From NCBI GenBank assembly GCA_029557835.1, contig JAKQHW010000011.1, forward strand, positions 1 to 51,414: 51,414 nucleotides of DNA. Direction: 5' to 3'. The stretch is from Candidatus Micrarchaeota archaeon (GTDB taxonomy: Archaea > Micrarchaeota > Micrarchaeia > Anstonellales > Bilamarchaeaceae). The notes under the pieces were generated by a model, which saw only the letters and a list, made by a program, of their open reading frames with translations, searched no databases and was not told where the DNA came from. The number at the start of each line of letters is the position of its first letter. Position 1 is the first letter of the stretch. The position numbers and the translations under genes are program-made. Positions 1-47,097 of this stretch are shown here, piece after piece.

Positions 1-468
1 ACCATAAGGTCCGCGGTTCCGCTGCGCAGGTTTTGTAGCCGCCTCGGGGAGTATGCGGGGCAGAGGATTGCGCTGGTGTTCGGGAGGGAAGGGATAGGGC
101 TGAATGAGAAGGAGATAGGGGTGTGCGACATCCTGGTGCACGCGGAAGCGGACCGGAGGTATCCCATCCTCAACATAAGCCATGCGATGGCGGTGGTGCT
201 CTATTCGGTGAGGGCGGGGGGCGGAAAGTCCGGGAAATGCGCGGAGGAGAGAATCAGGGGGGCGGAAAGGCGGGCGCTCACGCATATGTTTAATAAGATG
301 GCGGGGAGATATAGGGTGCGTAATCCGGGGAGGTGCCGGGCGGCCTTTGCAAGGGTGCTCGGAAGGGCGAACCCGACGATGGCGGAGGGGCAGTGCCTTC
401 TCAACGTCTTCCGGCTTGTGCTAGAAGAGCTGGGTGGTAAGGATGGCAAGGAAAATCACGCTCAATGA
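1..468 (+). CDS. SpoU/TrmH-superfamily RNA 2'-O-methyltransferase, C-terminal part (TrmJ-like); 5' end outside window
   Basis: Frame 1 is open from the window edge. ALVFGREGIGLNEKEI...YPILNISHAMAVVLY matches SpoU motifs 2-3. The helical C-terminal extension resembles the TrmJ tail. Confidence 0.6.
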   Translation, partial: TIRSAVPLRRFCSRLGEYAGQRIALVFGREGIGLNEKEIGVCDILVHAEADRRYPILNISHAMAVVLYSVRAGGGKSGKCAEERIRGAERRALTHMFNKMAGRYRVRNPGRCRAAFARVLGRANPTMAEGQCLLNVFRLVLEELGGKDGKENHAQ

Positions 469-1651
469 AATGATATCCCTCACTTTCGACGCGAATCCGC
501 AGATAAGGAAGCAGGCCGCGGCAGAGCTGGCGAGGTACGACGACCCGGCGGCGAATTTCGCGCTCCTGGAGCTCACATACGACAAGGATTCCAGCGTGAG
601 CTCGCTTGCGAGGAAGCTTCTGGACGACAGGAAGGCGTCCCAGCCCGAGCTGATGTCCTTCGCCGAGGTCTTCAGGAACGGGGCGGAGGAAAAAGAGGAG
701 GGGAAGAAGAGCGTGGAGGAGGAGCGCAAGGCGGAGACCGCAAGGGAGAAGATGCTGAGGCCGATCCAGCAGCTCATGGAGAGGAAGCTGGGGAAGGAGA
801 AGGCCAACGCGATGAGAAGCAGGATGATGCCCACGATAGAGAAGATATATATGAAAACCATGGGCAAGAACGGCCAGGTGAACGAGCAGAAGGGGAAGGC
901 CGTGCAGGAGATGCTTACCGATTACCTGGACGTGATCTCAGGGGCGGAGACGCATGTGATAACGGATGAGGGGGAGGGGAAGGCTCCCAGCCCGGAGATG
1001 CCGGATGGGGGGCCGGAGGAAGCGCCCGGGGAGGAGCTGCAGCCGGAACCGCATGGGGAGCTGGGGCTGCAGAGCGTAGGGACCAAGGAGCTGGACATGG
1101 GCAGGGCGGCGATAGAGCTGGAGGAGATTTCAAGCGAGCCTGAGACCCCGGATGCAATTGAGGCGCAGGAGGTGAGGGAAAGCAGGGAAGAGAGGGGGAG
1201 CGTTTTCCGGCTTGCGTACGAAACGATGATGGCGTCCGAAGGCGACGAGGACGTAATGAAGAGGGCGATGCAAAACATGCTCAGGAGCGCGGAGGAGGAG
1301 ATAAAGCTCGCGTTCAGGGTGGCCAAGGAAAGGCACAAGCAGATGAACATCACCCACCTCACGGAGCTGAAAAGCGGCATGAGGAACATAACCACCGTGC
1401 CCCTCGCCGTGAAGGCGGTGGAGCAGAGGGAGTACCAGAAGAGCAAGAAGGTGAAGGACAACTTCACGAGGCTGGTTGTGGCGGACGATGAGGGGAGCGA
1501 AGGGGTAATCTACTTATTCGACAACAGGGGCGCCCTGGTGAGGGAGGGGATGCGCATAAAGATAGAGAAGGGGTACGCGAAGACCTTCGGGTTCTCGGGC
1601 GAGACGGCGCTTTCCATAACGAAGAAGGGGAGCGCTCATATAATCCTTTGA
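443..1651 (+). CDS. hypothetical protein: N-terminal HEAT-like repeat, acidic low-complexity centre, C-terminal OB-fold-like domain
   Basis: The ORF spans 434..1651 and the first ATG is at 443. NPQIRKQAAAELARYDDPAA..LLELTYDKDSSV is HEAT-like. The C-terminus TRLVVADDEGSEGVIYLFDNRGALVREGMRIKIEKGY looks like an RPA-type OB fold. I recognise no family. Confidence 0.5.
   Translation: MARKITLNEMISLTFDANPQIRKQAAAELARYDDPAANFALLELTYDKDSSVSSLARKLLDDRKASQPELMSFAEVFRNGAEEKEEGKKSVEEERKAETAREKMLRPIQQLMERKLGKEKANAMRSRMMPTIEKIYMKTMGKNGQVNEQKGKAVQEMLTDYLDVISGAETHVITDEGEGKAPSPEMPDGGPEEAPGEELQPEPHGELGLQSVGTKELDMGRAAIELEEISSEPETPDAIEAQEVRESREERGSVFRLAYETMMASEGDEDVMKRAMQNMLRSAEEEIKLAFRVAKERHKQMNITHLTELKSGMRNITTVPLAVKAVEQREYQKSKKVKDNFTRLVVADDEGSEGVIYLFDNRGALVREGMRIKIEKGYAKTFGFSGETALSITKKGSAHIIL
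1627..1651 (+). repeat. direct repeat copy 1 (25 nt, GGGGAGCGCTCATATAATCCTTTGA)
   Basis: It matches 1814-1838 at 23 of 25 positions. It covers the last codons and stop of the 443..1651 gene. Confidence 0.85.
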
Positions 1652-1660
1652 TGGTTCAAA

Positions 1661-1813
1661 GGAATGTGCTAAGTGCGCGCAAAGGGCTACAAAGCGAAGT
1701 GGAGGGGGGTCAGAATGACCGGTAAAAATGGGGGGGTTCGGTCGACGCCCCGTTGCAGGGAATTGCAGCGAAGAGGGGTGGAGAGCGAATTAGCTTCCCC
1801 CGCGTTTTCTCGA
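1661..1813 (+). other. tRNA-less copy (X) of the tRNA-proximal noncoding module family
   Basis: AGTGCGCGCAAAGGGCTACAAAGCGAAGTGGA matches 35863-35894 at 25 of 32 positions. It is followed by a G-run, the mini-hairpin GGTCA-GAA-TGACC (1708-1720), TAAAAAT, a G7 run (1730-1736), a ~60-nt insert and a C5 run (1797-1801). No credible ORF is present. Confidence 0.45.
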
Positions 1814-1838
1814 GGGGAGCGCTCACATAATCCTCTGA
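1814..1838 (+). repeat. direct repeat copy 2 (GGGGAGCGCTCACATAATCCTCTGA)
   Basis: It pairs with 1627-1651. On the minus strand it encodes the last codons and stop (..SAQRIM*) of the 1823..2422 gene. Confidence 0.85.
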
Positions 1839-2422
1839 GCGCTTATGCAGTAGAGGATTTCGAAAAAGAACGGCCTCTGCTCAAGGATTGATGCCGAGAA
1901 GCCCTGCGATTGGAGGGAGGAAAGCGTTTTTTCGGGCGAGTTGAGCGAGCTCTGGATGAGGATTAGCGTGCCGCGGGGCGCAAGGTGGGCCTGGAATTCG
2001 TTTAGGAAACGGCCCAGGGTTTCCCTTCCGTCCTCCCCGCCGTCGAATGCGCGGTTGAGGGGGCCGCTTATGCGCTCCTCGGCGGAGGTCGGGAGATAGG
2101 GCGGGTTGAACAGGATTGCGTCGAATTTCCCCCTTATGTTGGAGAAAAGGTCAGATTGGACGAACAGGATGTTCCGGGCGCCGTTGGATTCCGCGTTCTT
2201 CCTGGCGCACTCGAGGGCCGTGGGGCTTGTGTCCGTTGCGAAGACCGGGTTTGAAGGGTTGGTTTTTGCATTGAGGATTGCGGCGAGGCCCGAGCCGGTG
2301 CCGATTTCGAGTATTTTGCCCTTTAAATTGCGGGAGTGGAAGGCCAGCAGCTCGGAATCCTCCGCAGGCTCGTATACATCGGAAGTGACGGATACGGAAA
2401 CACCCAGGAACTCATGGCTCAT
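1823..2422 (-). CDS. HemK/Mtq2-family N5-glutamine (release factor) methyltransferase
   Basis: It has the SAM motif ILEIGTGSGL and the NPPY motif (ILFNPPYLP). The ~200 aa size is typical of archaeal HemK-related methylases. Its start overlaps the stop of the upstream gene (TAATG). Confidence 0.75.
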   Translation of the reverse strand: MSHEFLGVSVSVTSDVYEPAEDSELLAFHSRNLKGKILEIGTGSGLAAILNAKTNPSNPVFATDTSPTALECARKNAESNGARNILFVQSDLFSNIRGKFDAILFNPPYLPTSAEERISGPLNRAFDGGEDGRETLGRFLNEFQAHLAPRGTLILIQSSLNSPEKTLSSLQSQGFSASILEQRPFFFEILYCISAQRIM

Positions 2423-3870
2423 TATCCTGTTTCACCGTTGCCTGCGCAGGGCCTTGGCCTGGCCATAAAATCTTGCCTGAACTGCTCCAGCCTGGACATG
2501 AAATCCTCGCACTGCCCTTGAAGGTGTGAGCATAGCGCCTTCAGCTGGGGGTCGTCGAAATGGATGCTCCCTATGGAGGCGAGGTCAATGCTGAGGATGG
2601 GCCTATCGTCCCTTATGAGGTGGACGCGGCGGTTCCCCTGGTCGAAGGACGTCCTGTAGGGGCTGAACTGGTCGTCGCGCCTGCACCCCACCACGCGGAA
2701 CACCTTCTCGCTCGCGGCAAGGCCGGGAGGGAGGTAACTTTCCATAGGCAGTATGGTGTATTCCCGGAAAATCGAGCGGAGATGGCCGAGGTAGTCTTTT
2801 CCGTCGTCGGGGAGGCCTATCTCGAGCCAGCCGAGCATGAGGAGATGTTTCGGGTCGGCGCCATAGACGTTTATCTGGCCGAAGCGCGGGGCGTGCACCC
2901 CCTCCAGCCCCTGCCTCACCAGCACCTCCCGCGGAGGGCACCTGGAGACCCAGCTGTCCGGGGCGCTGGCGATCGCGTCGCGGGGCACCTCGAAGCCCAG
3001 CTCGTTCTCTATGTAGCCGACGAGCCAGTCAATGTCCTCGCTTGCGAGCATGCGAGAGAGCACGGCCATTGTGTTGTTCACTATGAGGCGGGCGTTCCTC
3101 TGCCGCTTCTCCGGCCGGACGTTCTTGAGGGTGTGCAGGTTGTCGAGGTTGTCCGCAGACTTTATCACCCAGGCGCTCGTGTTCCCTGATACGTAATAGA
3201 GGCGGCGGTAGTAGCTGTATCCCCTCCTGTCGTACATGGAACGCTCGTAGCTGTCCTGCGTTGGGTAATAGGATTCTGAATCCGGGTATATCCATTCCTT
3301 TCCGTCCCATTTGGGCTTGGTGAGCCACAATACCATATCTGAGACGGGCGCCCCGAAATTCTCCCGTATCTCCTCAAGGCGTACCCCGAAATCCTCGATG
3401 GAGTCGTGGAGCATCGCCGCGGTGACCTGCTGCTGGTCCTCCTGCCTGCCCCTGCCAACCACCGCAATGCGGTATGCGACGCGCATGGCGTGCTGCATGT
3501 AGGCGGAGCCGTCGTCCCTCACAAATATGGAACCGGTTCTTGGGTTTGGGCGGGTGCGATGGAGAAGGGACAGGAATTCGTGGGCGGCTTCCAGCCGCTT
3601 TATCTGGCCCATGCCGAGGCTGCCATGCCTGGCGAATTCCCGCACAATCTGTTCCATGGAAACGTCATCAGGAGGGTGGAAAAAGCTGGTTGGCACGCGC
3701 TTGGCCGTGCATATCCCCTCAAAAAGGAGGGGTGCGCGGGACAGCCCGGAGGCCCCATCGGAAACTGTGGTGCCCAGCTGGCGCAAGCCGCGGGCTGGGG
3801 TGTCCCTTTCGCACAAGAGGTCGAGCTGCGTGCCCCTCATCGGGGGCGTCGGTTTCCTGTCTGGAGGCAT
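2422..3870 (-). CDS. HD-domain protein, RelA/SpoT (Mesh1)-type hydrolase domain plus unknown ~190-aa C-terminal domain
   Basis: QHAMRVAY..., AAMLHDSIEDFG and VIKSADNLDNLHTL match the H / HD / D motifs of SpoT-type (p)ppGpp hydrolase domains. A Tyr/Arg-rich insertion is present, and I do not recognise the C-terminal half. Confidence 0.65.
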   Translation of the reverse strand: MPPDRKPTPPMRGTQLDLLCERDTPARGLRQLGTTVSDGASGLSRAPLLFEGICTAKRVPTSFFHPPDDVSMEQIVREFARHGSLGMGQIKRLEAAHEFLSLLHRTRPNPRTGSIFVRDDGSAYMQHAMRVAYRIAVVGRGRQEDQQQVTAAMLHDSIEDFGVRLEEIRENFGAPVSDMVLWLTKPKWDGKEWIYPDSESYYPTQDSYERSMYDRRGYSYYRRLYYVSGNTSAWVIKSADNLDNLHTLKNVRPEKRQRNARLIVNNTMAVLSRMLASEDIDWLVGYIENELGFEVPRDAIASAPDSWVSRCPPREVLVRQGLEGVHAPRFGQINVYGADPKHLLMLGWLEIGLPDDGKDYLGHLRSIFREYTILPMESYLPPGLAASEKVFRVVGCRRDDQFSPYRTSFDQGNRRVHLIRDDRPILSIDLASIGSIHFDDPQLKALCSHLQGQCEDFMSRLEQFRQDFMARPRPCAGNGETG

Positions 3871-3966
3871 AATAATGGTAAATAGGCGCAGAAAAAGTAT
3901 TTAAACGTTGGGTTTTGTGGGAAAGTGAATGTTTGGGAATACATAAATGAAGGTTTTTTGCACTTG

Positions 3967-4401
3967 CTAGCGGATGACCAGCTGCTTCCCCTTCTTTTTC
4001 TGCCCTGATTTTATCCTCATGCGTATCTCAAGGACGCCGTTCTCGTATTTCGCCCTGGCGGAAGAGGGGTCCACCTCCTCGGGGAGGGCAAGCTCGCGGG
4101 AAAATGCGGAGAGGAGGCGCTCCTTCCTGTAGAAGCCCTTCCCCTTCTCCCCCTTCTCTTCCTTCCTCCCGCCCGAGATGCGCACGCGGTTGTCGTGCAG
4201 GTCCACCCGGATGTCCTCCTTGCTGAGGCCGGGCATCTCCACCGAGAGGACCAGCTCGTTCCTCTCCTTCCTGAGGTCGGCGGGCGGGGTGCGTGCCCCG
4301 GCGGTGAAGAAATCGAACTCTTTTCCGAAAAGGTCAGGGAACTCCCAGTAAAGCCGCTTCCGCATCCTCTTCAGCTTCTCGTATGGGTCCGGGACGAACA
4401 T
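3967..4401 (-). CDS. small heat shock protein, Hsp20/alpha-crystallin family
   Basis: The alpha-crystallin core is LVLSVEMPGLSKEDIRVDLHDNRVRISG...AKYENGVLEIRM. Confidence 0.85.
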   Translation of the reverse strand: MFVPDPYEKLKRMRKRLYWEFPDLFGKEFDFFTAGARTPPADLRKERNELVLSVEMPGLSKEDIRVDLHDNRVRISGGRKEEKGEKGKGFYRKERLLSAFSRELALPEEVDPSSARAKYENGVLEIRMRIKSGQKKKGKQLVIR

Positions 4402-4617
4402 CTACTGGTCAACCCTCTCCGCGACCCCGAAGGTCCTCTTGAGGGAGGTTATCTTCACCTTCAGGGTTTCGCCTTTCTGCGCGTTCGGGACGAATATCAC
4501 GAAGCCGTTCAGCTTCGCCATCCCGTCGCCTTTTCCGCCAACCGACTCGATGGTGACTTCCAGCACGTCGCCCTCTTTGACGGGCTTTGGAAGGTCTATT
4601 CCCTTGCTCTCTTCCAC
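4402..4617 (-). CDS. TRAM-domain RNA-binding protein
   Basis: This 71-aa protein contains EGDVLEVTIESVGGKGDGMAKLNGFVIFVPNAQKGETLKVKI, typical of stand-alone archaeal TRAM proteins. It abuts the Hsp20 gene. Confidence 0.75.
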   Translation of the reverse strand: MEESKGIDLPKPVKEGDVLEVTIESVGGKGDGMAKLNGFVIFVPNAQKGETLKVKITSLKRTFGVAERVDQ

Positions 4618-4690
4618 TTGCTCACCCGCTTTTTGGATGGGAAGCTAAAAATTAAATAGATATGCGGAGGACTAGGACTGGGCGATTGGC

Positions 4691-5251
4691 ATGGCAGGCA
4701 ACAAAAGGAGGAGGCCGTTCGGGTTCTTCGGTTTTGACGATGAGGGGTTCGGGTTCGGCGGCGAGTTTGAGCGCATGCGCGAGGAGATGGAGGAGATGAT
4801 GGAGAGGATGATGCAGGGCATGCCGCGTGACAGGGTGAGGCGGCTCTCGGAGATGAGGGGGCCGCAGGTTTACGGTTTTTCGGTGAGGGTCGGGCCGGAC
4901 GGGAAGCCGGTTGTGACGGAGTTCGGGAACGTTAAGAGGGAAAGGGGGCTGGAGCCCCAGGGCGAAATGGCCGGGGTGGAGGAATGCAAGGGAGCGGAGA
5001 AGGGGCAGGAAGGCGGGGAGAGGGAGCCGCTCGTGGATGTGTTCAAGGACAGGAAGGGAGTGAACGTGATTGCGGAGATGCCCGGTGTTGGCGAGAATGA
5101 AGTGCGGCTGGGCGTGAACGGGAAGGAGCTGGAGATAAGGGCTGAGGGGGCGAGGAAATACTACAGGAAGGTGGAGTTGCCCGAGGACGTCTCAAAGAAG
5201 AAGATGGAGAAGAAATACAGGAACGGGGTATTGGAGCTCGTTTTCTCCTAG
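4691..5251 (+). CDS. small heat shock protein, Hsp20 family (long N-terminal Met/Glu-rich arm)
   Basis: The C-terminal alpha-crystallin domain is VDVFKDRKGVNVIAEMPGVGENEV...KKYRNGVLELVF. It is divergent from the TRAM-Hsp20 pair. Confidence 0.8.
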   Translation: MAGNKRRRPFGFFGFDDEGFGFGGEFERMREEMEEMMERMMQGMPRDRVRRLSEMRGPQVYGFSVRVGPDGKPVVTEFGNVKRERGLEPQGEMAGVEECKGAEKGQEGGEREPLVDVFKDRKGVNVIAEMPGVGENEVRLGVNGKELEIRAEGARKYYRKVELPEDVSKKKMEKKYRNGVLELVFS

Positions 5252-7716: not shown

Positions 7717-7757
7717 CCCTTGTTTTTAATTCTTCAGTAATTTATTATCTATAGCCG

Positions 7758-7853
7758 AGGGGTTATGGTTACCCTAAAAGGGAAGGGGGCGATGAGGTCC
7801 CGGTGGACTTCTTCGGACATCGCAGCAGCGATGCGGAGGTCCCCCTTCCTCCT
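7758..7853 (+). other. tRNA-proximal noncoding module, copy A (closing helix 7781-7789/7841-7849 with two internal hairpins)
   Basis: The sequence runs GGGGTTATGGTTACCCTAAAAG, then GGAAGGGGG...CCCCCTTCC. Internal hairpins are GAGGTCC-CGGT-GGACTTC (7794-7811) and CATCGC-AGCA-GCGATG (7818-7833). It ends 4 nt before tRNA-Val. Confidence 0.5.
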
Positions 7854-7925
7854 GGACCCGTGGTCCAATGGTCAAGACGCCAGCCTTACACGCTGGAGAC
7901 CCTGGTTCGATTCCGGGCGGGTCCA
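7854..7925 (+). tRNA. tRNA-Val (anticodon UAC)
   Basis: I folded the cloverleaf by hand. The acceptor is GGACCCG/CGGGTCC, the anticodon arm is CCAGC-CTTACAC-GCTGG and the T arm is CCTGG-TTCGATT-CCGGG. It is 72 nt with no encoded CCA. Confidence 0.9.
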
Positions 7926-7926
7926 C

Positions 7927-8721
7927 ATGGTGAGAATAAGCGAGGGTGAGATGGAGCTGAGGAAGGAGATTGCCTTGCACGTGGGGCAGGGCAACGCATT
8001 GCTCTCATCCATAAGGTTCTCGGAGCCGTTGCCTGCGGAGGAGGCGGAGAAACTGAAGAAGGCGTTCGCGCACTTTGATGAGGCGGAGGAGCTTAGCGAA
8101 GGGATGGAGGTTGGCGGGGCGAGGCTTTCCTCAGTTGGCGAATACGCGGACTATACGGAAATGTATGCGGGATTGTTTGGCAAATGCCTCTGGGGGGTCC
8201 CTTTCCAGGTGCGGGAGGAGGTGGTGAACGTGCTGGACTCCTATGTGGCGGATTCTTCTGAGAAGATGGAGCTGCTGTTGCGGGTCCGGGCCCTTGCCGG
8301 GAGGCAGGACGTTGGCCCGAAAGTGAGGCTGTACCTGAAATTCAAATTGTACAATGACTTTTACGAATACCTTTTCACGAGGCACAAGATGCTGCTGCTC
8401 ACGTCCAGGGATTTCGGCAGGATGGACAAGGACGGCACCGTGGGGGCTTTCCTGAACAGGGTGAAGTCCGAATGGGCGGACGAGAAATGGGTTCCGCAGT
8501 TCTCCTCGGTGTGGGGCGGCATGTACAGGAATTCCGCGGCGCATTTTGCGTTCAGGGTGGCGGAAGGCGCGATTGAGATAGAGAGGAGCGGGGAAAAGGT
8601 TCCGGAGGCGGAGCTGGACAAGTTGCTGAACAGGCTCATCATGCTTTCGATCGCTTTCGACTCGGTGGTGTACAGGCAGAAGAAGGAAGTCGTTTTCGAG
8701 AAGTACGGGGTGAGGTTATGA
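7927..8721 (+). CDS. hypothetical protein (alpha-helical, no recognised domain)
   Basis: I trimmed ORF 7765..8721 to the first ATG after the tRNA (7927; alternative 7951). The stop overlaps the next gene's start as ATGA. Confidence 0.5.
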   Translation: MVRISEGEMELRKEIALHVGQGNALLSSIRFSEPLPAEEAEKLKKAFAHFDEAEELSEGMEVGGARLSSVGEYADYTEMYAGLFGKCLWGVPFQVREEVVNVLDSYVADSSEKMELLLRVRALAGRQDVGPKVRLYLKFKLYNDFYEYLFTRHKMLLLTSRDFGRMDKDGTVGAFLNRVKSEWADEKWVPQFSSVWGGMYRNSAAHFAFRVAEGAIEIERSGEKVPEAELDKLLNRLIMLSIAFDSVVYRQKKEVVFEKYGVRL

Positions 8722-14580: not shown

Positions 14581-14618
14581 AAGGAGGGGGCAACTGTTTT
14601 TTCCCTATCCCCCTCCTT
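14581..14618 (+). terminator. G5/C5 hairpin with T6 in the loop plus a TCATTTTC tail, downstream of tRNA-Lys
   Basis: AAGGAGGGGG-(18 nt incl. TTTTTT)-CCCCCTCCTT is a 10-bp stem, followed by TCATTTTCC. It contains direct-repeat copy 2 (14588-14602). Confidence 0.4.
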
Positions 14619-14691
14619 TCATTTTCCACGCTCCTTTCTGATTTCCTCCCCCAACCAAATAAAAATAAACCCTCCTTCCGAATAATAACCC

Positions 14692-27290: not shown

Positions 27291-27351
27291 GTTTTTATTC
27301 TTCTTTTGTTGCTAATATGGATGCCGGAGACTGGAAACAGGAAACGGTCTT

Positions 27352-27450
27352 GGGTCCGTAAGGTAACCTGGATAGCCTACAAGGCTTCGAATGCCTTCTC
27401 CTGAATGCAGGAGCAACCTTGCAGTGTGGGTTCAAATCCCGCCGGGCCCG
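27352..27450 (+). tRNA. tRNA-Arg (anticodon UCG) with ~25-nt intron at the canonical 37/38 position
   Basis: The acceptor is GGGTCCG/CGGGCCC. The anticodon arm is CAAGG-CTTCGA[intron ATGCCTTCTCCTGAATGCAGGAGCA]A-CCTTG. The T arm is GTGGG-TTCAAAT-CCCGC. The intron carries the hairpin CTCCTG-AATG-CAGGAG. Confidence 0.85.
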
Positions 27451-27464
27451 ATTGGAGAAAACGC

Positions 27465-27480
27465 GGGGGAGGCGTCCCCC
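27465..27480 (+). terminator. G5/C5 hairpin plus TCATTTTC tail downstream of tRNA-Arg
   Basis: GGGGGA-GGCG-TCCCCC is followed by TCATTTTCTTCC. The same CCCCCTC..TCATTTTC tail follows tRNA-Lys. Confidence 0.4.
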
Positions 27481-31724: not shown

Positions 31725-32111
31725 ATGGGCATATTGAAATCAATAAAGGAATTCTTCTTGGGGAAGGACGAGAAGAAGGCCGTTCCACAAGCAAAGCCGG
31801 CGGCCGCAGCGCCGCCTGCCGCGAGGCCGCTGCCTCCGCCAAGGCCGGTTGCGAGGCCGCTGCCTCCTCCACAGAGGCCGGCGGGTGCGATGCCCCCGAG
31901 GCCGATAGCGCCTATTTACCGGCCGCTTCCGCCTCCGGCGCGCCCGGTTGCGAGGCCGCTGCCTCCGCCAAGGCCTGCTGCCAGGCCCGCAGTCTTTGCG
32001 CCGCCCTATTCCGCCATGAAGGCGGCCCAGAAGCCCGCCGCCAAGAAGCCGGCGAAAAAGGCGGCTAAGAAGGCGCCTGCGAAAAAAGGGAAGGCGAAAA
32101 GGAAAAAGTGA
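31725..32111 (+). CDS. Pro-rich repeat protein with N-terminal amphipathic helix and Lys/Ala-rich basic tail
   Basis: It starts MGILKSIKEFFLGK, carries 4x (A)RPLPPP(R)P units and ends AAKKPAKKAAKKAPAKKGKAKRKK. Confidence 0.5.
   Translation: MGILKSIKEFFLGKDEKKAVPQAKPAAAAPPAARPLPPPRPVARPLPPPQRPAGAMPPRPIAPIYRPLPPPARPVARPLPPPRPAARPAVFAPPYSAMKAAQKPAAKKPAKKAAKKAPAKKGKAKRKK
31821..31975 (+). repeat. intragenic DNA repeats encoding ARPLPPPRP units
   Basis: GCGAGGCCGCTGCCTCCGCCAAGGCC is identical at 31821-31846 and 31950-31975. A 17-nt partial copy is at 31851-31867. Confidence 0.85.
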
Positions 32112-32162
32112 ATTAAAGACGGGGGCGAGAGCCCCCTTCCTGTTTTTCCATAACCAGGGCGG

Positions 32163-35808: not shown

Positions 35809-35855
35809 ACCAGCTCCCATTTTAATAAGATGGTGGGGGCAAATAATAAACACGC

Positions 35856-35997
35856 GAAATGAGTGCGTGCAAAGAGTTGCACGGTGAAGTGGAAAGGGGG
35901 TATGATTACCCTAAAGAGAGGGGGGATGGTGGAGTTCCGCAGAACTTCGCCAGACATCGCCGCAGCGATGCTGAAGGCGTTCCCCCTTCTTCTTGGA
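35856..35997 (+). other. tRNA-proximal noncoding module, copy B
   Basis: AGTGCGTGCAAAG..GAAGTGGA is shared with copy X. It continues GGGGGTATGATTACCCTAAAGAGA, a G6 run, hairpins GGAGTTC-CGCA-GAACTTC (35931-35948) and CATCGC-CGCA-GCGATG (35955-35970), then CCCCCTTCTTCT. It ends ~4 nt before tRNA-Pro. Confidence 0.5.
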
Positions 35998-36070
35998 GGG
36001 GTCGTGAGCTAACCTGGTATGCTGCCAGCTTTGGGAGCTGGTTGTCAGAGTTCAAATCTCTGCGACCCCA
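35998..36070 (+). tRNA. tRNA-Pro (anticodon UGG)
   Basis: The acceptor is GGGGTCG/CGACCCC, the anticodon arm is CCAGC-TTTGGGA-GCTGG and the T arm is CAGAG-TTCAAAT-CTCTG. Confidence 0.9.
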
Positions 36071-36278: not shown

Positions 36279-36325
36279 GGGGGGTTATGAGTACGCTAGA
36301 GAGAAGGGGGTGCTCCCCCTTCCTC
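36279..36325 (+). other. tRNA-proximal noncoding module, minimal copy C (tetraloop hairpin)
   Basis: GGGGGGTTATGAGTACGCTAGAGAG is followed by AAGGGGG-TGCT-CCCCCTT. It ends 6-8 nt before tRNA-Met/Ile2. Confidence 0.4.
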
Positions 36326-36330
36326 TTGCA

Positions 36331-36471
36331 GCCGAGGTAGCTCAGCCTGGCTGGAGCGCCAGACTCATAAGGCGCGGTTCTTATGAGTACTGAGGCGGAC
36401 TTTCCGCCTATGACATACAAAGGCGTATCTGGGAGATCTGGAGGCCGGGGGTTCAAATCCCCCCCTCGGCA
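36331..36471 (+). tRNA. tRNA with anticodon CAU (elongator Met or Ile2) containing a ~66-nt intron (36370-36435)
   Basis: The acceptor is GCCGAGG/CCTCGGC. The anticodon arm is CCAGA-CTCATA[intron]A-TCTGG. The T arm is GGGGG-TTCAAAT-CCCCC. The intron contains CTTATGAG, complementary to the anticodon loop, which is expected for BHB formation. It is not initiator-like (G1, no GGG/CCC anticodon stem). Confidence 0.85.
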
Positions 36472-36480
36472 ATTCTGGTT

Positions 36481-37047
36481 TTATGCAGGATAAAACATGA
36501 AGAACAGTATCGCCGCCGCGGGTATTGTGATGTTGTCGTCCAGCGGGAGCGGCAGTGATTCCGCCATTGCGCAGGCCATGGCGAGCGGGATTGCGGCGGG
36601 CCCGATGAAATAGAACGCTGTGAGCGAGCCGGCCAGGAAGGCGAGGCTGCCCTCGAACGTCTTGTTGCGGTTGTATGGGATGCGCCATCTGCCATTCTGG
36701 CCGATGAGTGTTGAAAGGGAGTCCCCAAAAGCGAGGACGCAGATTGCTGCTGAGAGTGCGTTCAGGTCGCTTATCGCCACCGAAGCCATGAGGATTCCGA
36801 ATGCGTACCATGCCGAGCCGAAGCCTGGGGCGCGCACCCCCCTCCTTTCGAAATTCTCGATGAACCAGCTTACGAACGGCAGGCGGAGCCCGGAAAGGGC
36901 AAGGTGCATGGCCATCAGCCCTGCAAGAATGCCGGCGAAAAGGATGATTTCGAGGGTGTGCCTTCCGAAGTTTTGCAATATGAGGAGGAAGATTATCCCG
37001 ATTGCGATGTGTATCAGTTTCCTACTTCTTTCCTTCAAGCAAAGCAC
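36481..37047 (-). CDS. dolichol kinase / CTP-dependent polyprenol kinase family (CTP_transf_1 superfamily)
   Basis: It is a polytopic membrane protein. SRKLIHIAIG, FGDSLSTLIGQ and KTFEGSLAF are typical of COG0170 (SEC59-like). Confidence 0.6.
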   Translation of the reverse strand: MLCLKERSRKLIHIAIGIIFLLILQNFGRHTLEIILFAGILAGLMAMHLALSGLRLPFVSWFIENFERRGVRAPGFGSAWYAFGILMASVAISDLNALSAAICVLAFGDSLSTLIGQNGRWRIPYNRNKTFEGSLAFLAGSLTAFYFIGPAAIPLAMACAMAESLPLPLDDNITIPAAAILFFMFYPA

Positions 37048-46601: not shown

Positions 46602-47097
46602 GTTCTCACCAGAGTTATCCTGTTGCTGGATAATCCTATGGCAGGATAACTTATTAAATATACCGGCTTAACAATAACTTAACATAACTCACGTCGGTGA
46701 GTGGATTATTGTTAAGTATTGTTAAATTAATGATGGTCGCCTATTTTATGCATCTAACTGAACAAAAATCCCAATTTCTTTCATTATACTGAAGGCTTTA
46801 GGATACGCGGGCGCTTCGGCCTTCTGTGAATCGTTAAATCTCATTACGTAAAGTTTAAGCTGGATTTATTTGACGAAAACGCCAGGAATGCAATTCTTCC
46901 GTCTTAAAATATTAAGCGGTTTATGATTTAATGCAATTTAATGTAAATGTCGAACCGTCATTAGTAAGTCGCTCCGTTTTAATCATTTACCCTTCGCTCA
47001 GGCGGAAAAGGAGAGAGAATGGAAGCTGTAAAACCTGATTTTGCAGACGTAGTGGCTGGAAACCCGAAACTGGAAACTGGAAACAAAATCAATGATT
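46602..47097. other. ~500-bp AT-rich gene-free region with palindromes and CTGGAAAC repeats
   Basis: GC is visibly far below the flanks (e.g. 21 of 60 in 46681-46740). No ORF of 60 aa or more lies within 46602-46978. Inverted repeats are 46614-22/46642-50 and 46667-77/46706-16, with an inner hairpin at 46687-46702. CTGGAAAC occurs at 47056-63, 47070-77 and 47077-84. Confidence 0.6.

Follow-up and report, generated by a model that had tools for sequence, protein, structure and literature searches.

The window analyzed here is the whole stretch of 51,414 nucleotides (nt) on contig JAKQHW010000011.1 from a Candidatus Micrarchaeota genome; Micrarchaeota are DPANN archaea of very small size. The window is archaeal, with intron-containing tRNAs, tRNA 3' ends that lack an encoded CCA, and a GC content of 51-62%. 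The element in question, copy B, is a composite module of structured repeats located directly upstream of the gene for tRNA-Pro(UGG). Within this module is a mini-element of 48-50 nt, termed the core, which represents a repeat family with at least 36 strong copies, recognized by a covariance model, in 28 contigs of Micrarchaeota type. A previous sequence-only reading had described a series of motifs at this locus, and all of them are present at the coordinates given for them. The locus comprises the following features:

35820..35829, + strand: candidate promoter, a TATA-like box (TTTTAATAAG) for a transcript of leader plus tRNA-Pro, read from sequence
35853-35994, + strand: copy B, the composite module
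35853..35895, + strand: 5' head of the composite, GCGAAATGAGTGCGTGCAAAGAGTTGCACGGTGAAGTGGAAA, also present in copy C (below) and in the heads of "type ii" modules of other Micrarchaeota
35896..35911, + strand: G-run and mini-hairpin, GGGGGTATGATTACCC, with which the outer "P1-type" module begins
35896-35900, + strand: the G-run, from sequence
35898-35911, + strand: the mini-hairpin, GGGTA-TGAT-TACCC, from sequence
35912-35925, + strand: TAAAGAGA plus G6, from sequence
35913..35925, + strand: purine strand of the closing stem P1, AAAGAGAGGGGGG, which pairs with 35982-35994 in the RNAfold minimum-free-energy structure
35925..35974, + strand: the core mini-element (cmsearch, 76.9 bits; covariation over 26 distinct copies; filled versus empty sites)
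35927-35937 with 35942-35952, + strand: hairpin 1, GGAGTTC-CGCA-GAACTTC, which extends to 11 bp; loop CGCA
35955-35970 (35955-35960 with 35965-35970), + strand: hairpin 2, CATCGC-CGCA-GCGATG; loop CGCA
35982..35994, + strand: pyrimidine strand of P1, CCCCCTTCTTCTT, separated by 3 nt from the 5' end of mature tRNA-Pro
35998..36070, + strand: tRNA-Pro(UGG) (ARAGORN; Rfam, 59.2 bits), with the composite module as its 5' leader and GGA as the spacer

Judged by where its parts recur, copy B is chimeric and joins three parts, namely a type ii head, a P1-type module, and a core. The head, GCGTAAGGAG...GTGAAGTGGG, is also found in loci L029, L129, L142, L145, and L152 (relatives were examined as 8-kb loci). 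The head is conserved as a sequence; the local hairpin that it forms in copy B is not conserved. The outer P1-type module is approximately 50 nt long and includes a conserved GGGGKTATGATTACCC box and a polypurine/polypyrimidine stem, P1. Its mini-hairpin is kept as a sequence (GGGGKTATGATTACCCTAAAGAGA) in 10 P1-type modules, and its pairing is lost in copy D (below) and L139a. The P1 stem is also found in empty modules, which contain no core. This recurrence and the folding energies support P1; its strands are of low complexity, its register varies by a bulged C, and it exhibits little covariation. The core of copy B consists, in order, of GA, hairpin 1, GA, hairpin 2, and the tail CTGA.

Copy B is predicted to fold at -62 kcal/mol (z = -5.25), and none of 200 shuffled sequences folds as well. 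A three-way junction had been proposed for this module, and such a structure is reasonable where the core sits within a host helix. In copy B itself, however, the minimum-free-energy structure contains an alternative to canonical hairpin 2 and lies 2.4 kcal/mol below the junction (-62.6 versus -60.2). Canonical hairpin 2 is accepted because of its covariation, not because of its energy.

The TATA-like box lies approximately 25-30 nt 5' of the module start and may be the promoter. Because the module and tRNA-Pro are separated by only 3 nt, no promoter lies between them. The composite is situated between the TATA-like box and tRNA-Pro, so it is most likely transcribed as a leader of approximately 140 nt. 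A close counterpart of copy B, with 88% identity, is present in locus L142 of another metagenome-assembled genome (MAG), where no tRNA follows it.

Related modules in the window

Three further modules occur in the window:

7759..7853 (core 7788-7837), + strand: copy A, a P1-type module with a core; it abuts tRNA-Val(UAC) at 7854
36279..36328, + strand: copy D, an empty P1-type module, comprising the mini-hairpin plus AGAGAGAAGGGGG-TGCT-CCCCCTTCCTCTT; the alignment gap spans exactly the core
1661..1813, + strand: copy C, a type ii module without a core, which has its 5' head and G-run/C-run frame in common with copy B

Copy A carries the hairpins GAGGTCC-CGGT-GGACTTC and CATCGC-AGCA-GCGATG, and AT-rich, TATA-like boxes are found 5' of it (7723-7749). 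Its predicted fold is at -46.5 kcal/mol (z = -2.4). A repeat search aligns 7758-7837 with 35895-35974 at 74% identity over 80 nt. Copies A and B are true paralogues. The core covariance model scores 76.9 bits for copy B and 64.4 bits for copy A (E of approximately 1e-15 and 9e-13), and there is no third match in the 51 kb. The motif order and hairpin sequences originally given for the two copies are correct, as are the substitutions noted between their first hairpins: pair 6 changes from C:G to T:A, and pairs 2 and 3 swap A:T and G:T. The 11-bp form of hairpin 1 adds two double changes between A and B, one from C:G to T:A and the other from A:T to G:C.

The resemblance of the 5' part of copy B to positions 1673-1704, in copy C, had been put at 25 of 32 identities, and a direct count gives the same value. 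Copy C has 78-83% identity to the type ii modules of L029, L145, L148, and L152, and its 3' end is CCCCCGCGTTTTCTC/GCGTTTTCTC, the latter containing oligo-T. It is bracketed by 26-nt direct repeats (AGGGGAGCGCTCAYATAATCCTYTGA) at 1626-1651 and 1813-1838. Both repeats hold the last seven codons and the stop codon of the open reading frame (ORF) at 434-1651, and their two differences are at third codon positions.

Copy D ends 2-3 nt 5' of the intron-containing tRNA-Met(CAU) (36331-36471), and the spacing between module and tRNA is 0-3 nt in copies A, B, and D. The upstream regions of the other four tRNAs in the window are short and unremarkable.

Perhaps the outer stem, with its G5...C5 pairing and pyrimidine run, is a terminator or attenuator of the upstream gene, and the entire block is a 3' element of the GNAT gene. 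Genes and tRNAs of the window end in similar G5-loop-C5 hairpins with T-containing pyrimidine runs (14581-14620, 27458-27480, and 32114-32144), and every module copy except D is downstream of an ORF on the same strand. Moreover, the stem is purine-then-pyrimidine on both strands, and one empty module lies after a tRNA in reverse orientation. However, the tRNA begins 0-3 nt past the stem in copies A, B, and D, so transcription through the stem is required, and the tRNAs for Pro-UGG, Val-UAC, and Met-CAU are presumably needed. Also, CCCCCTTCTTCTT has no oligo-T tract, unlike the end of the stand-alone copy C (GCGTTTTCTC), and in contig L156 of MAG258 the module is traversed by an ORF and immediately followed by the start of the next gene. 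A terminator is therefore very unlikely.

Two intron-containing tRNAs of the window are found by Rfam and missed by ARAGORN: tRNA-Met(CAU) at 36331-36471, with an intron of approximately 70 nt, and the tRNA at 27352-27450. The tRNA-Met intron holds TTATGAGTACTGA, which resembles box C and box D', and a 10-mer within this intron, TTATGAGTAC, is also present in the mini-hairpin of copy D (36286-36295). At copy A, an open frame (7765-8721) begins with an ATG in the mini-hairpin and runs through the module and tRNA-Val into the next gene. The likely start codon of that gene is the ATG at 7927, 1-2 nt past the tRNA, and the longer frame could mislead a gene caller. It is possible that tRNA-Val and the downstream mRNA are co-transcribed.

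The core family and its conserved pairing

The covariance model was built from 21 sequences, and the copies span at least six MAGs, with at least 12 in MAG258 alone. True loci carry a near-invariant stretch, GATGGTGAAGTTCCGCAGAACTTCGCCAGACATCGCCGCAGCGATGCAGA, that comprises hairpin 1, GA, hairpin 2, and the CNGA tail. Nine core copies, at eight distinct sites, do not have the exact hairpin-2 pattern.

A scan of species-representative genomes with a slightly longer hairpin-2 pattern than that used for metagenomes (below) yielded 35 loci. Of these, 21 are labeled Micrarchaeota, Micrarchaeia, ainarchaeum, or unclassified archaeon, one is a "Methylococcales" contig, and 13 are bacterial and score at most 34 bits with the model. 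A metagenome scan used an 18-base hairpin-2 pattern that also reads as a coding sequence (D-I-A-A-A-M), and the matches listed are mostly due to chance. Four of the first 100 loci checked are true (L029, L043, which equals L050, and L093), and a fifth, L079, was recognized later. Approximately 30 loci (L091, L092, and L094-L121) were screened solely by a flank filter for G/C runs. When a further 100 loci were run with the model, all except two true matches scored at most 34 bits, which is the chance ceiling for hairpin 2. In viral contigs, a 28-nt core pattern has no match.

The contig with the Methylococcales label (L138, JAQTMV010000225.1) contains a leader module, a core, and an archaeal-type tRNA-Leu(UAG) as in the ainarchaeum contig L132, which comes from the same site. 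Contig L138 is probably mis-binned. Protein P0001 (ENA, 810-nt contig) is a predicted 59-residue ORF that passes through two tandem cores in two different frames. Because this ORF spans two cores, tandem core arrays exist.

Among the 26 distinct cores, 98.6% of pair cells hold standard pairs. Changes on both sides occur at 9 of the 17 pairs; hairpin 1 contributes 6 of its 11 pairs, and hairpin 2 contributes 3 of its 6. Variants of hairpin 2 include CATCTC/GAGATG, CTTCAC/GTGAAG, and TATCGC/GCGATA. None of 500 shuffles reaches the observed values, and slid partners give 30-58% pairing. The suggestion that pairing is under selection, first made by comparing A and B, extends across the family. An alternative pairing of 5' GATG with CATC, which had also been raised, is rejected; it exhibits no covariation, and it is broken by CATGG or AATGG 5' ends and by the CTTCAC/GTGAAG form of hairpin 2.

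Copies A and B could simply be old duplicates of a tRNA leader that have no element behavior and that acquired compensatory changes by chance. The window alone, with two full copies that both precede tRNAs, is compatible with this explanation. It is contradicted by the presence of at least 36 copies in at least six MAGs and many contexts, by the covariation, and by the filled and empty sites, which make it extremely improbable. However, compensatory change is not proof of a host function, because a mobile family whose founders keep the fold predicts the same pattern equally.

The sequence-only reading placed the selected structure at the level of RNA or cruciform DNA. The G.U wobbles of hairpin 1 are all on the given strand, and 19 of the 26 cores fold more stably on this strand than on its complement. 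These data favor a folded single strand, either RNA or single-stranded DNA (ssDNA). A double-stranded cruciform fits worse, because its complementary arm would carry A.C mismatches.

Searches of Rfam 15 at gathering thresholds revealed only tRNAs in the window and in 17 related loci, and low-threshold scans (to E <= 10) of copy B, copy C, and the 3' region of a TnpB element described below gave noise only. The literature searched contains no description of this repeat family. Several known motifs were considered and rejected. A hammerhead or other self-cleaving ribozyme has no Rfam match at E <= 10, and the junction strands are GA, (A)GA, and CNGA on inspection. Against a K-turn, k-junction, or box C/D motif, inspection reveals that A30 is U in five copies, that 2 nt connect hairpin 2 to the 3' GA, and that CUGA occurs only in B and L142. 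The module is also not a conserved peptide: the ATG of the mini-hairpin opens frames in A, B, D, and L155, but the frame of the core differs between copies. Concatenated core-encoded peptides retrieved only three short, spurious ORFs from protein databases. For the 40-residue translation of module B, a word index gave no candidates, and a representative library gave four matches, two of them short read-through ORFs and the other two repetitive proteins that are unrelated.

Insertion sites, hosts and outer layers

The boundaries of the core are defined by one leader scaffold, GAGGTTTTTGGGCTCCTTTTTGCGCCGAGC ... GAGCGAGGCAACCCAAAGGCAGAGTGAAGC ... GCTTCACGATGACAAAAAGGAG, which precedes tRNA-Leu(UAG) in several genomes, and also tRNA-Gly and tRNA-Ser. 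The core is present in this scaffold at position 1, position 2, or both:

Position 1: empty, GAGC-GAAC/GAAT-GCT; filled, GAGC-GA[48 nt]AC/AT-GCT
Position 2: empty, GAAGC-GA-GCTATGG; filled, GAAGC-GA[48 nt]GCTATGG

Each filled form has exactly 48 nt more than its empty counterpart, set within GA...GA. The flanks are GA...GA in approximately 14 of 20 contexts and CA, TG, or GG in the others; 5' of the core, only the GA dinucleotide recurs. Most core sites are apical loops of pre-existing hairpins.

The hosts of the core are diverse. In L148 (532-693), a core is found in the intron of tRNA-Thr(UGU), a tRNA that Rfam confirms. A TnpB element has a subterminal hairpin whose loop houses one core subfamily, 25 nt away from the right end of the element. 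L141 contains nested cores: the 3' strand of hairpin 1 in one core encloses another core, which has a different hairpin 2. The GT2 glycosyltransferase ORF of L093 (6130-6903) contains an in-frame core, whose 16-residue insert corresponds to a 16-column gap relative to the Pyrococcus furiosus DPM synthase (5mlz). Another core lies within the C-terminal tail of a protein ORF (L136), and in L140 the core is antisense within its type ii host module. The functional RNA specific to tRNA leaders that had been implied for this locus does not agree with these data, because further hosts of the core include other leader scaffolds, a tRNA intron, a TnpB end, ORFs, and intergenic spacers, and one copy is antisense to its host module. 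Orientation relative to flanking ORFs is too noisy to use, because many long ORFs in GC-rich DNA are spurious.

The TnpB (IS200/IS605-type) element itself is found at L141 3339-4560 and at L043 1-190 (equal to L050 9300-9581). Its right end, ...GGGGAGCATGTCACAAT, was set by the point at which the two loci diverge, and the hairpin GCCCCGG/CCGGGGAGC holds the core in its loop, at the place expected for the scaffold of the guide (omega) RNA. TnpB was considered as a partner of the core and rejected, because it is present only in L141 and L043/L050 and there is none in the window. Short CTGGAAAC/GGAAAC repeats directly flank several cores (L146, L148 in the tRNA intron, L136, L145, and L155) and, in the window, adjoin tRNA genes at 27325-27350 and 47050-47097. 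These may be a further repeat layer.

The outer modules are also polymorphic. Seven filled P1 modules align flush with three empty ones (copy D and two in L139), and the single gap is the core. Contig L156 is syntenic with window positions 68-4932 at 69-77% nucleotide identity. At the orthologous site, L156 is without copy C and has one copy of the 26-nt repeat; the window has acquired copy C and, with it, a duplicate of the final 26 nt of the upstream ORF. L156 also has a P1-type module with a core between two genes that nearly abut or overlap in the window (395-425). There (L156 4456-4560), the upstream ORF reads through the module and acquires a C-terminal extension of approximately 40 residues, whose end falls on the start codon of the following gene. 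Core-bearing P1-type modules of other genomes show 84-89% identity with copy B and 79-81% with copy A, against 69-77% for the genes on the flanks. Outer modules are accompanied by direct repeats of 26 nt (copy C) and 17 nt (L155), and weaker ones of 14-16 nt are possibly due to chance.

The core could be an intron-like element that acts at the RNA level, given that it mostly occupies, in the sense direction, hairpin loops of RNAs that are structured and transcribed. Reverse splicing or retroposition would bring such an element into accessible loops of abundant RNAs, and its later removal from transcripts would make insertions harmless. A GT2 gene that looks essential and a tRNA intron both carry the core, which is consistent with this explanation, and the splicing endonuclease of ARMAN-type Micrarchaeota is reported to have a broad substrate specificity. 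However, a bulge-helix-bulge motif was sought by hand at the boundaries in L130, L093b, and L155 and rejected, because none of three GA registers has a 4-bp central helix. Also, the core carries no self-splicing or ribozyme signature, and the L140 copy is antisense to its host module. A length of 48 nt preserves the reading frame, and the copies in ORFs are stop-free as if translated, which is a weak argument with two or three cases. An intron-like element is quite unlikely. A related idea, that the core is an RNA-borne mobile element that enters exposed loops of abundant transcripts in sense, is fixed in the genome via cDNA, and is possibly excised again, is unlikely as well. If this were correct, the element would be a minimal intron-like parasite of tRNA precursors in DPANN archaea, or one that resembles a short interspersed nuclear element (SINE), and the 26- and 17-nt direct repeats would be target duplications of the retroposition type.

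Proposed nested mobile repeats and their relation to known systems

We favor, with a probability of approximately 0.55, the interpretation that copy B is a nested, non-autonomous mobile repeat that is transcribed as a long tRNA-Pro leader and removed during 5' maturation of the tRNA, and whose hairpins are kept for propagation as a single strand. The inner layer would be the 48-nt unit (50 nt when a flanking GA is included), with two hairpins that both have NGCA-type loops, which would spread by insertion, mostly into apical hairpin loops beside GA. The outer P1-type layer, in copy B fused to a head from a third repeat type, is gained and lost between related genomes. The leader would be cut off when the tRNA 5' end matures, presumably by RNase P. 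Copies that propagate would have to fold as a single strand, and so the hairpins would persist. In the version we prefer, which is speculative, this strand is ssDNA of the non-template strand, made accessible where RNA genes are heavily transcribed. Both the loop targets and the mostly sense orientation would follow from insertion into this displaced strand.

Several observations weigh against mobile repeats. A mobilizing gene was not found in the 8-kb loci, and no search of complete genomes was made. The core has no terminal inverted repeats, and its ends, TGGTGAAG... and ...GCGATGCA(GA), have only TG...CA in common; the inverted repeat formed by the P1 stem lies inside the outer module. The only candidate for a target duplication is the GA dinucleotide. 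In the canonical geometry of IS200/IS605 elements (IS608), a cleavage site is followed by a spacer with a guide tetranucleotide and then by a subterminal hairpin. The core departs from this arrangement, with a left boundary 0 nt from the foot of hairpin 1. The census is subject to ascertainment bias, because 25 of the 36 copies were found via the exact hairpin-2 pattern. Nearly all hosts of known direction contain the core in sense, which a role at the RNA level would also explain. Cores are 98-100% identical within a set of scaffolds that are themselves 68-94% identical, a contrast that fits selection on the sequence at least as well as it fits recent homing or gene conversion. Finally, nearly every copy keeps one wobble in hairpin 1, either U6.G25 or G7.U24, and this looks like a recognition feature.

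The last three observations are suggestive of a functional RNA domain, such as a protein-binding domain or a platform for processing or stability, that hosts have recruited repeatedly, so that its spread is a by-product of selection. The conserved wobble is accompanied by near-invariant junction nucleotides (G29, G49, and A50), and the given strand is the more stably folded one in 19 of the 26 cores. Sense copies are found in tRNA leaders, the tRNA intron, the TnpB 3' region, and ORFs. Moreover, structured leaders precede at least seven different tRNAs in these genomes, and the helix that closes such a leader stops 0-3 nt short of the mature 5' end. However, such a domain has no obvious role in an enzyme reading frame, a protein tail, the antisense copy of L140, or a core nested in another core. 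Most tRNAs of the window have no core, and its position differs among orthologous tRNA-Leu leaders. There is no Rfam match, and no K-turn, C/D box, or ribozyme core was found on inspection. A functional domain, the main rival of mobile repeats, is possible, though doubtful. If it were correct, the core would be a new and strongly conserved RNA-protein recognition module in tRNA biogenesis of DPANN archaea.

If the core is indeed mobile, it would be among the smallest mobile repeat units described. To our knowledge, no repeat family was previously described for Micrarchaeota.

Rickettsia palindromic elements (RPEs) resemble the core in that they are short hairpin repeats of one reduced-genome lineage and occur in intergenic regions, in frame in protein genes, and in structural RNA genes. 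RPEs sit in frame in ORFs and within the genes for tmRNA and RNase P RNA, and their mobility is equally unexplained (PMC2229807, PMC10969869). In contrast to the core, which is 48 nt long, has two hairpins, is archaeal, and is nested in repeat layers, RPEs are single long palindromes of 105-150 bp in an alphaproteobacterium. The core and RPEs have no common sequence, and the core family is found only in Micrarchaeota-type contigs. If the core is mobile, its RPE-like behavior in archaea with reduced genomes suggests that tiny structured repeats that tolerate or exploit RNA genes recur in symbionts with small genomes.

Repetitive extragenic palindromes (REPs), the bacterial interspersed mosaic elements (BIMEs) that contain them, and REPINs, which are mobilized by RAYT transposases, are similarly very short, imperfect palindromes with many copies, mosaic arrangements, and maintained structure. 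REPs are 20-40 nt long and are thought to be handled as folded single strands. In contrast, the core has no GTAG head, its hairpins are direct neighbors rather than an inverted pair, and it is not strictly extragenic. REPs are not known from archaea.

Among mobile introns, those of the bulge-helix-bulge type occur in the tRNA and rRNA genes of Thermoproteales. They, too, are short structured inserts at varying positions in structural RNA genes of one archaeal lineage. The boundaries of the core do not have the bulge-helix-bulge motif on inspection, and the core is also found in intergenic and antisense locations.

Archaeal MITEs (miniature inverted-repeat transposable elements) and the repeats of Methanocaldococcus jannaschii are small, non-autonomous archaeal repeats, some of which are fused into ORFs. 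The M. jannaschii repeats are palindromic and have coding potential, according to the citation of Suyama et al. 2005 in PMC2229807. Like MITEs, the core is short, noncoding, present in multiple copies, and polymorphic in its presence or absence, as are the outer modules. Unlike MITEs, it has neither terminal inverted repeats nor a clear target duplication. The prokaryotic elements tabulated or described in PMC2229807 and PMC10969869 are approximately 105-155 bp in length, longer than the core.

The ends of IS200/IS605 elements, the palindrome-associated transposable elements (PATEs) that are miniature forms derived from them, and the omega-RNA regions of TnpB elements are based on hairpins, are strand-specific, and have no inverted repeats, and one core subfamily resides in a TnpB right end. 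IS200/IS605 elements are reported in more than 65% of Micrarchaeota genomes (PMC13343696). The core differs in that no spacer or guide is present at its left boundary and its flank is GA rather than a target of 4-5 nt; the window, moreover, is without TnpB.

The modules explain the 100-200-nt leaders of several tRNA genes, and open frames that pass through modules and tRNAs can mislead gene callers. The covariance model is ready for use in masking or in a census, and filled and empty sites are usable as markers of strains or lineages.

Further observations concern the remainder of the window. G5-loop-C5 hairpins with T-containing pyrimidine runs are located at the 3' ends of tRNAs and genes at 14581-14620, 27458-27480, 32114-32144, and 36819-36849; they are terminator-like in appearance and similar to the modules' outer stem. 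One protein of the window is encoded by the JGI metagenome contig Ga0116237_10003297. A GC-rich repeat at 31809-31987, with a 30-nt period and GCCGCTGCCTCCGCCAAGGCCGGTTGCGAGGCC-like units, is probably a low-complexity coding repeat.

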